Source: Gemmatimonadota bacterium (GTDB taxonomy: Bacteria; Gemmatimonadota; Gemmatimonadetes; Palauibacterales; KS3-K002). From it: a stretch of 64,000 nucleotides of DNA. Within the stretch, counting starts at the first letter, position 1; each line of letters opens with the position of its first letter. Location of the stretch: assembly GCA_039586575.1 (NCBI GenBank), contig JBDHKD010000003.1:7817-71816 (forward strand), written 5' to 3'. Below are positions 5,101-5,180 of the stretch, one piece after another. The translations under genes were made by a program, and so were the position numbers. The notes below the pieces were generated by a model that saw only the letters and a list, made by a program, of their open reading frames with translations, had not been told where the DNA came from and did not search any database.

Positions 5101-5180
5101 GGGTCAGTAGGTCAGTGGTGTCAGTGAGTGTCAGTGGACTAGTCGAACTGACCTACTGAGTCACTGACTTACTGACCGAC
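5101..5180. repeat. imperfect 80-bp palindromic element built from 4+4 GTCAGT/ACTGAC hexamer repeats around an ACTAGT centre
   Basis: gggTCAGTaggTCAGTggtgTCAGTgagtgTCAGTgg-actagtcgaa-ctgacctactgagtcactgacttactgaccgac. Lies 8 bp after the ldh stop and 30 bp upstream of the glyA start. Shares an exact 15-mer with the element at 8218-8270. Confidence 0.75.

Follow-up and report, generated by a model that had tools for sequence, protein, structure and literature searches.

The subject of this study is a palindromic array of short GTCAGT and ACTGAC repeats that lies between two genes of a metabolic gene cluster in a Gemmatimonadota bacterium (GTDB lineage Bacteria; Gemmatimonadota; Gemmatimonadetes; Palauibacterales; KS3-K002). 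The DNA analyzed, herein the window, is the whole stretch of 64,000 nucleotides (nt) from positions 7,817 to 71,816 on the forward strand of contig JBDHKD010000003.1 (GenBank assembly GCA_039586575.1); coordinates below are those of the window. All genes of the cluster are on the minus strand and follow one another, from high to low coordinate, as thiolase, BioY, CAAX protease, hbd, acyl-CoA dehydrogenase, ldh, and glyA. The Ldh protein has its best homologs, at 91% identity, in metagenome-assembled genomes (MAGs) of the Gemmatimonadales. We name the spacers of the cluster A (ldh to glyA), B (CAAX protease to hbd), C (hbd to acyl-CoA dehydrogenase), and D (after glyA). The genes and features on which the argument draws are as follows.

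9830-11044, minus strand: thiolase gene
8238-9188, minus strand: CAAX (Rce1-like) protease gene, whose stop codon comes from the half array
8238-8267: weak palindrome at the 3' end of the CAAX protease gene, beside the half array (15-nt arms, 80% complementary)
8219-8250, plus strand: sibling half array in spacer B, reading GTCAGT (8221), GTCAGT (8229), ATCAGT (8237), and GACAGT (8245)
7360-8205, minus strand: hbd (3-hydroxyacyl-CoA dehydrogenase), downstream of the half array
5188-6255, minus strand: ldh (Glu/Leu/Phe/Val, or "leucine," dehydrogenase), upstream of the element
5072-5187, minus strand: spacer A, 116 nt between ldh and glyA, mostly filled by the element
5098-5181: the whole element, four GTCAGT opposite three ACTGAC and one ACTGAG, centered on ACTAGT
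5098-5137, plus strand: left arm, with exact GTCAGT at 5103, 5111, 5120, and 5130
5138-5146: center or apical loop, ACTAGT (5138-5143) then CGA; the transcript reads GTTCGACTAGTCC
5147-5181, plus strand: right arm, ACTGACCT, ACTGAGTC, ACTGACTT, ACTGACCG, with a strict 8-nt period
3776-5071, minus strand: glyA (serine hydroxymethyltransferase, SHMT), GTG start, downstream of the element

The element begins ∼7 nt past the ldh stop codon and ends about 30 to 35 nt ahead of the glyA GTG, so the gene coordinates bear out the placement between the two genes that had been given by an earlier reading of the letters alone (herein the sequence-only reading). That reading had also described four GTCAGT hexamers around an ACTAGT center, which are present as described, separated by spacers of 3 to 5 bp, which we measure as 2, 3, and 4 nt (spacings of 8, 9, and 10 nt in the left arm). 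Its four mirrored ACTGAC copies are three exact copies, at 5147, 5163, and 5171, and a fourth, at 5155, that reads ACTGAG. The array unit is the octanucleotide GGTCAGTA / TACTGACC, with (ACUGACCU)n as its RNA repeat form, and the 20-nt stretches 5098-5117 and 5162-5181 match as complements at 90% of their positions. On the transcribed (minus) strand the left arm is the ACTGAC-type arm, on the glyA-start side, and the right arm is the GTCAGT-type arm, 3' of the ldh stop; the TTCGA-type loop between them is found again in the homologous elements of relatives. Tandem Repeats Finder (TRF) delimits arrays at 5103-5136, 5147-5176, and 8219-8250, and the window arrays contain at least three head-to-tail copies of a unit within the range of 5 to 11 nt.

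The third of these arrays is the half array of spacer B. It stops 14 nt short of the hbd ATG (8205), and the TGA stop codon of the CAAX protease gene (8238-8240) sits within its third unit. The 15-mer ACTGACCTACTGACC occurs exactly, on the minus strand, at both 5102-5116 and 8220-8234; the recurrence in front of hbd was thus correctly noted in the sequence-only reading, with coordinates (8222-8236) that were off by 2. When up to two mismatches are allowed there are five matches, all within the two sites, against 0.06 expected. The further argument, that an exact 15-mer is not expected to occur twice in 64 kb by chance, proved weak: the window contains 148 distinct repeated 15-mers (∼21 in mononucleotide shuffles). 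The pattern GTCAGT-N2-6-GTCAGT has five matches in the window against 0.02 expected. The GTCAGT hexamer alone is not enriched (18 occurrences against 22.5 expected, 9 of the 18 in the two sites), and the 56 kb of the window outside the gene cluster contain no further GTCAGT array. What is non-random is the array structure, its intergenic placement, and its recurrence in relatives.

Syntenic loci were available from two complete MAG chromosomes, one European Nucleotide Archive (ENA) contig, and 80 metagenome loci; relatives with complete genomes are CP070815.1 and CP070722.1, and individual loci are given as L numbers. Homologous inverted arrays occupy the same spacers in L120, L122/L125, L124, L127, L130, L132, and L138, mostly with a 7-nt period. 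Their units are ATCAGTA / ACTGATC in L120 and L122/L125; TATGCGG / CCGCATA in spacer A and GGTCGGT / ACCGACY in spacer B of L124; and TAGTCAT / TTACTAA-type in L130, L132, and L138. In L127, GGAAAT-type units make up a palindrome of 140 nt (z = −9.9). TGCGGTG is also among the divergent units at orthologous spacers, and the array in spacer C of L122 includes two units of exact TAACTGA. Copy number at one spacer runs from 2.4 to 13 units, and the arms of a single element can differ widely in length (3.6 units in one arm and 13 in the other in spacer A of L122). Both arms switch unit together, so that complementarity is preserved. No arrays are found in the sister lineages L126, L128, L129, L131, and L133 through L135, nor at any of the loci at 66 to 71% Ldh identity; some of the array-free sister spacers are only 18 to 26 nt long, and folding of these spacers gives no indication of a hairpin (z from −1.3 to +1.9). 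It follows that the operon does not universally require the hairpin, and the recurrence in orthologous spacers of relatives to which the sequence-only reading had looked is found in one clade and not in its sister lineages. Across that clade the arrays are intergenic, hairpin-forming, and located at orthologous spacers; unit and copy number turn over fast, and the arms stay complementary.

Comparison of spacers within and between genomes shows that the copies evolve in concert. The longest exact string shared by spacers of one genome has a median of 14 nt, and 7 of 12 pairs share 13 to 26 nt; the median for the same spacer compared between genomes is 7 nt. The longest shared strings are as follows.

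L122, spacers B and C: 26 nt
L138, spacers B and C: 25 nt
Window, spacers A and B: 15 nt
L130, spacers B and C: 15 nt
L124, spacers B and C: 13 nt

The 25-mer of L138 departs from perfect tandem repetition, and elements B and C of this locus can be aligned end to end; this argues for copying or gene conversion between neighboring spacers rather than for parallel slippage. The contigs L122 and L125 are near-identical, and their sole difference in 21,056 bp falls within array B. Evolution within a genome is thus concerted, and the 15-mer common to the window's spacers A and B is one instance of it. Spacer C itself is absent from the window since the acyl-CoA dehydrogenase ATG directly abuts the hbd stop. 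In the same acyl-CoA dehydrogenase gene, at 7149-7194 (minus strand), a 23-bp sequence (GATCCTGCCCGAGGAGTATGACG) is duplicated perfectly in tandem, which shifts the frame and leads to a stop at 7120-7122; the protein of relatives is intact at 390 amino acids, and either the gene is a genuine pseudogene or the duplication arose in assembly.

On the transcribed strand, the element folds into an imperfect stem-loop of ∼30 bp (−44.5 kcal/mol, z = −3.6), and the RNA of the whole of spacer A reaches −48.2 kcal/mol (z = −4.7 relative to dinucleotide shuffles); the sequence-only reading had proposed folding of the palindrome as a check, and a stable stem-loop is what results. The half array of spacer B folds without a significant hairpin (z = −1.5). 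The element has stop codons in all three frames of both strands, and a coding role was rejected on this ground. Consensus scans found no σ70-like site in 3400-9900 and no terminator-like site or U-tract at the element; the same scan found a canonical hairpin with T-run after BioY. The arrays lie in co-directional spacers that are evidently transcribed together with the genes, 14 to 35 nt from start codons and just after or inside the upstream gene, so the sites are intra-operonic and leave no space for a separate promoter. Rfam searches by E-value over 4000-9500 and 2700-3800 returned nothing on the element, and Pfam scans of the flanking genes in the window and relatives revealed no conserved neighboring regulator gene.

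To describe the distribution of such arrays, we scanned 954 kb of Gemmatimonadota loci. All 14 strict ACTGA-core arrays in this DNA, the sampling of which was centered on the present gene cluster, are intergenic, between same-strand genes, and in spacers of this cluster. Copies of the window type number two in 64 kb, both in one cluster, with none elsewhere in ∼190 kb of DNA from the clade. A profile hidden Markov model (HMM) built from six relatives' elements was searched against the 954 kb and the 119 loci listed from the public scan described below; its matches, like those of the strict motif, were confined to the known operon spacers, and it missed the GC-richer window copy. There are 43 arrays with a period of 7 to 8 nt, of which the 10 inside coding sequences all have GC-only units; those with AT-containing units occur in the close clade only. 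The arrays are therefore biased toward non-coding DNA near the stops and starts of co-directional genes, as is the class of long simple-sequence repeats (LSSRs) discussed below.

A public scan with one genome per species for GTCAGT-N2-4-GTCAGT-N2-4-GTCAGT returned at least 119 loci, all in genomes other than that of the window. Among the matches listed, 12 of 119 are accompanied within 250 bp by an inverted ACTGAC array, far above chance, and the taxa include Gemmatimonadaceae, Acidobacteriota, Verrucomicrobiota, Chloroflexota, Bacteroidota, and Bacillota. Among these listed matches the neighboring genes are unrelated, and in L029 they are convergent; a link to branched-chain or fatty-acid catabolism as such was rejected on this basis. 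L101 contains a 19-nt stretch identical to the window element and is genuinely from Chloroflexota, as the homologs of its neighbors come from Anaerolineae and Promineifilaceae. In L101 the palindromic array is flanked by the binding-protein and ATPase genes of a phosphonate ABC transporter. L206, a relative at 78% identity, has an ordinary hairpin with T-tract at exactly the array position, and relatives of L101 at 92 to 94% identity have no spacer there; in these last the unit is found within a gene, as described next.

Three further sets of loci are of separate interest. In two Chloroflexota wastewater contigs (L204, 2841-2884; L205, 2831-2874) the GTCAGT unit lies within a 1,073-residue guanylate-cyclase/AAA/TPR gene, where the units alternate between 8 and 7 nt (15-nt period) and encode TDLLT three times in frame. 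At 4441-4598 of L029 (Gemmatimonadaceae MAG, DASSNR010000185.1) a GTCAGT/ACTGAC palindrome between convergent genes carries, nested in its center, a second unrelated palindrome of ∼110 bp (TGTCATTCCGAGCG...CGCTCGGGATGACA), as if hairpin loops served as insertion sites for other palindromic repeats. An Acidobacteria MAG (RPQK01; L004, L031, and L068) has ACTGACAR arrays of up to 22 units opposite GTCAGTYT, in the reverse arrangement with ACTGAC first; two of the three contigs of this MAG that bear them do so at their ends, suggesting that the repeats break the assembly.

Two other hairpins of short tandem units were found in the window, as follows.

3625-3770, minus strand: spacer D hairpin, GGGGAATC/GGGGAGTA octamers (16-mer ×3.2, 100% identity) opposite a C-rich array
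45029-45070, minus strand: heptamer hairpin, CAGCCGA ×2.6 opposite TCGGCTG ×2.4, near-perfect, between co-directional genes

The first lies directly 3' of the glyA stop (3776) and folds at −86.6 kcal/mol (z = −5.6); its G-tracts, 4 nt apart, fit a G-quadruplex motif. At the equivalent place, L122 and L124 have long non-repetitive palindromes. Rfam searches of 3620-3772 gave generic long-hairpin (microRNA precursor) matches, all sub-threshold. The second reaches −45.9 kcal/mol (z = −6.8) over 45028-45096. Together they indicate that this genome tends in general toward hairpins built of short tandem units.

Repeats of this kind have precedents. LSSRs are arrays of units of 5 to 11 nt, mostly heptamers (Mrazek 2007, as summarized in PMC4679880 and also cited in PMC4692102), and at orthologous spacers A, B, and C, taken over the window and relatives, the present arrays belong to this class. 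The closest described members are the TAACTGA repeats of marine Beggiatoaceae, Cyanobacteria, and Bacteroidetes, the function of which is unexplained (MacGregor 2015, PMC4679880). Like the present arrays, these are 7-nt tandem arrays with an ACTGA core that are nearly all intergenic, lie in "forward" orientation toward a nearby downstream start codon, have stops in every frame, and in some cases overlap the end of the upstream open reading frame (ORF) and supply its stop; they also change copy number in unit steps (7-nt indels) between close strains and are patchily spread across phyla (PMC4679880). They differ in four respects: the unit here is the octamer TACTGACC, or heptamers such as ACTGATC and CCGCATA in relatives; the arrays here are usually inverted pairs forming a long hairpin, whereas no more than one inverted repeat was reported for the Beggiatoa genome; there are two copies here in 64 kb, in one gene cluster; and Gemmatimonadota is not among the reported host phyla (PMC4679880). 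The element is alike in core and behavior, and we do not assign it to the TAACTGA repeat sensu MacGregor 2015 because its unit is the 8-nt TACTGACC and not TAACTGA.

The GGGNATC / GGGGA(C/T)T heptamer repeats of Xanthomonas and Nostoc (Rehm et al. 2015, PMC4692102) are similar in other ways. They have units of 7 to 8 nt, are over-represented between co-directional ORFs near stops and starts and under-represented between divergent genes, recur at the same gene pairs of related genomes with wide variation in length and sequence, and are transcribed, with inverted copies that permit stem-loops (PMC4692102). The spacer D array of the window looks to be of this type. The GTCAGT unit, in contrast, is not G-rich, allows no quadruplex, and shows no four-unit preference.

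The enterobacterial and pseudomonad repetitive extragenic palindromes (REPs), including bacterial interspersed mosaic elements (BIMEs) and REP doublets forming hairpins (REPINs), are likewise imperfect palindromes, found in transcribed spacers inside operons or at operon ends, and a classical site for them is between binding-protein and downstream transporter genes, as in L101. A stabilizing effect on the upstream mRNA is attributed to REP/BIME elements. Unlike the present element, REPs are 20 to 40 nt long and have no tandem units; they occur in hundreds of dispersed copies and are linked to REP-associated tyrosine transposases (RAYTs). Cyanobacteria also have the short tandemly repeated repetitive (STRR) sequences, heptanucleotide repeats that were reportedly described by Mazel et al. 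in 1990 as tandem and intergenic. STRR units include CCCCAGT, TTGGTCA, and CAACAGT, with CAGT or GGTCA strings in common with the present unit; they are known from heterocystous cyanobacteria and have served mainly as fingerprinting targets. Our literature search found nothing specific on repeats of this kind in Gemmatimonadota.

We consider it somewhat more probable than an even chance that the element is a palindromic pair of hepta/octanucleotide simple-sequence repeats of the TAACTGA/GGGNATC class, a pair that slippage and gene conversion maintain and that forms an intercistronic stem-loop on transcription. Replication slippage would make the arrays grow and shrink, and template switching or gene conversion would homogenize the two arms and neighboring copies. 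The TGA and TAG codons that the arrays carry in three frames would restrict them to spacers or a gene's final few codons. The polycistronic mRNA would then carry an imperfect stem-loop of ∼30 bp that lacks a U-tract, and its most likely effect would be to block 3' exonucleases, to provide a site for processing, or to attenuate in part and so uncouple expression of the flanking cistrons; an effect on transcription initiation seems unlikely. A role at the level of mRNA is suggested by the Chloroflexota locus, because the position of the L101 array matches that of an ordinary intercistronic hairpin. It is also possible that the symmetry has its origin at the level of DNA and that the arrays have little or no function.

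Several observations weigh against this interpretation in one part or another. The same spacers retain arrays in lineages with 75 to 91% Ldh identity, which argues against pure neutrality. The restriction of ACTGA-core arrays to this one cluster, within ∼950 kb of Gemmatimonadota DNA whose sampling was centered on it, is not predicted by pure slippage and leaves room for a locus-specific role. Folding of the sense and antisense strands gives a mean difference of +3.4 kcal/mol, with the sense strand more stable in 8 of 15 cases; for the window element the antisense strand folds at −50.4 kcal/mol and the sense strand at −40.1 kcal/mol. As the antisense strand folds as well or better, selection on the mRNA strand is not demonstrated, and counts of G-U versus A-C in the sense and antisense folds show no consistent strand asymmetry. 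Single-arm arrays without a hairpin, moreover, occur in spacer B of the window and in spacer C of L122, L124, and L127.

Five alternatives were weighed against the preferred reading of a slippage- and conversion-maintained repeat pair. The first, which we regard as unlikely, is that the elements are mobile palindromes of REP/REPIN or miniature inverted-repeat transposable element (MITE) type, copied by a transposase acting in trans, so that the 15-mer would stem from recent insertions. The palindromic, intergenic, post-stop, transcribed setting is a REP-like niche; the B and C copies of one genome are homologous over ∼75 to 95 nt including non-repetitive detail, as with the 25-mer of L138; a second palindrome is nested in L029; and presence is polymorphic among relatives. 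The copies nevertheless stand at orthologous positions in divergent genomes, none lies beyond the one cluster in the 64-kb window, the ∼190 kb of clade DNA, or the ∼950 kb overall, the arms can be very unequal (3 versus 13 units), and no transposase is nearby except for an unrelated IS110 in L121. The designation MITE was itself rejected: the flanks of the window element, GGCGGTAGTCG...CCACTTAGC, contain no direct repeat and hence no target-site duplication, the positions are orthologous rather than new, and the ∼190 kb hold no dispersed copies. Of the repeat family of REP or MITE type suggested by the sequence-only reading, the family stands, since the two sites are siblings with homologs in relatives, and the MITE label does not.

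Quite unlikely, in our view, is binding of the ACTGA-core units by an RNA-binding protein (Csp-, S1-, or CsrA-like, or new) that controls downstream translation and with which the units co-evolve, as has been proposed for TAACTGA repeats (PMC4679880). The start-proximal arm is always ACTGAC or ACTGATC, the "forward" orientation of TAACTGA, and the single arms in spacer C of L122 and L124 share it; exact TAACTGA is present in the former, 14 nt separate the half array from the hbd ATG, and the units are genome-specific yet common to the spacers of a genome, with arrays that persist at the same spacers. Palindromic copies, on the other hand, would sequester the binding sites in a duplex. The single-arm array of L127 has the opposite orientation (GTGAGTA), units diverge to TGCGGTG or GGAAAT at one spacer, relatives with the same genes do without arrays, and our scans found neither a candidate protein nor a conserved adjacent regulator gene.

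It is improbable that the hairpin acts as a terminator or attenuator, stopping or reducing ldh transcription ahead of glyA. The strong stem-loop immediately past the stop codon would suit such a role, as would the classical hairpin with T-tract that L206 has where L101 has its array. Against it, the element has a stem-loop and no T-run, the scan makes no call at this site in a genome that does have canonical hairpin-plus-T terminators, and we rejected it as an intrinsic terminator accordingly; glyA, about 30 to 35 nt from the hairpin, has no space for a promoter of its own, and the half array before hbd lacks a significant hairpin. To the same low degree we entertain a more speculative proposal, in which ACTGA-core arrays would be the cis-code of a widespread trans-acting protein or RNA factor that reads 7- to 8-nt units on mRNA or DNA; genome-specific units would then reflect co-evolution of site and reader rather than gene conversion, and the palindrome would be a switch between sequestered and exposed states.

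Very improbable is the shared operator or promoter put forward in the sequence-only reading, in which one transcription factor would co-regulate glyA and hbd: the 8-bp period recalls the tandem 8-bp met-boxes read by MetJ, a ribbon-helix-helix repressor, both sites precede start codons within a single metabolic gene cluster, and ACTGA-core arrays were found only in this cluster within the DNA sampled, but 3400-9900 holds no promoter-like site, the arrays are intra-operonic, neither unit nor period (7 or 8) nor copy number (2 to 13) is conserved, several relatives lack arrays, no adjacent regulator gene was found, and elsewhere the arrays stand beside unrelated genes or between convergent ones. 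Tandem-box repressor operators of the MetJ, omega, or ParG type were rejected for the lack of a promoter-like site and of a conserved unit, period, or number.

Three further non-coding stretches of the window deserve mention. On the minus strand, 3501-3620, upstream of a 124-residue ORF (3126-3500), belongs to ∼130 nt of non-coding sequence conserved in eight Gemmatimonadota loci (67% mean column identity), with an invariant TTGAC and the blocks ACGCGG, GTGAGGTAGCGG.GATGA.AGGAGC, and GGAACGGGTGGGGCTGAATG. It has no Rfam match and looks like the promoter and conserved leader of a 124-residue protein that has no Pfam assignment. The intergenic stretch 27307-27477 has 46% GC in a genome of 68% GC and contains a long imperfect hairpin that includes CTCTATTG ×2.9. 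The 226-nt spacer 39430-39655 has a long stem and a pair of modules that resemble each other (GACGTTG(ATGTTG)TGTTGA...CC.CG.....CCACGTTCCTAG-like); it may be another local repeat.

The GTCAGT/ACTGAC element adds to a known and functionally unexplained class of intergenic hepta- and octanucleotide repeats. For annotation, this means that the shared 15-mer is no signal of a regulon: the repeats are homogenized within a genome and are worthless as motifs for comparison between genomes. Gemmatimonadota, together with a Chloroflexota case that has 19 nt of identity, join the lineages with ACTGA-core intergenic repeats. Three or four spacers in about ten genomes form a comparative series in which unit and copy number turn over and position and complementarity are kept, and this series could test whether heptamer repeats are selected structures or self-perpetuating products of slippage.

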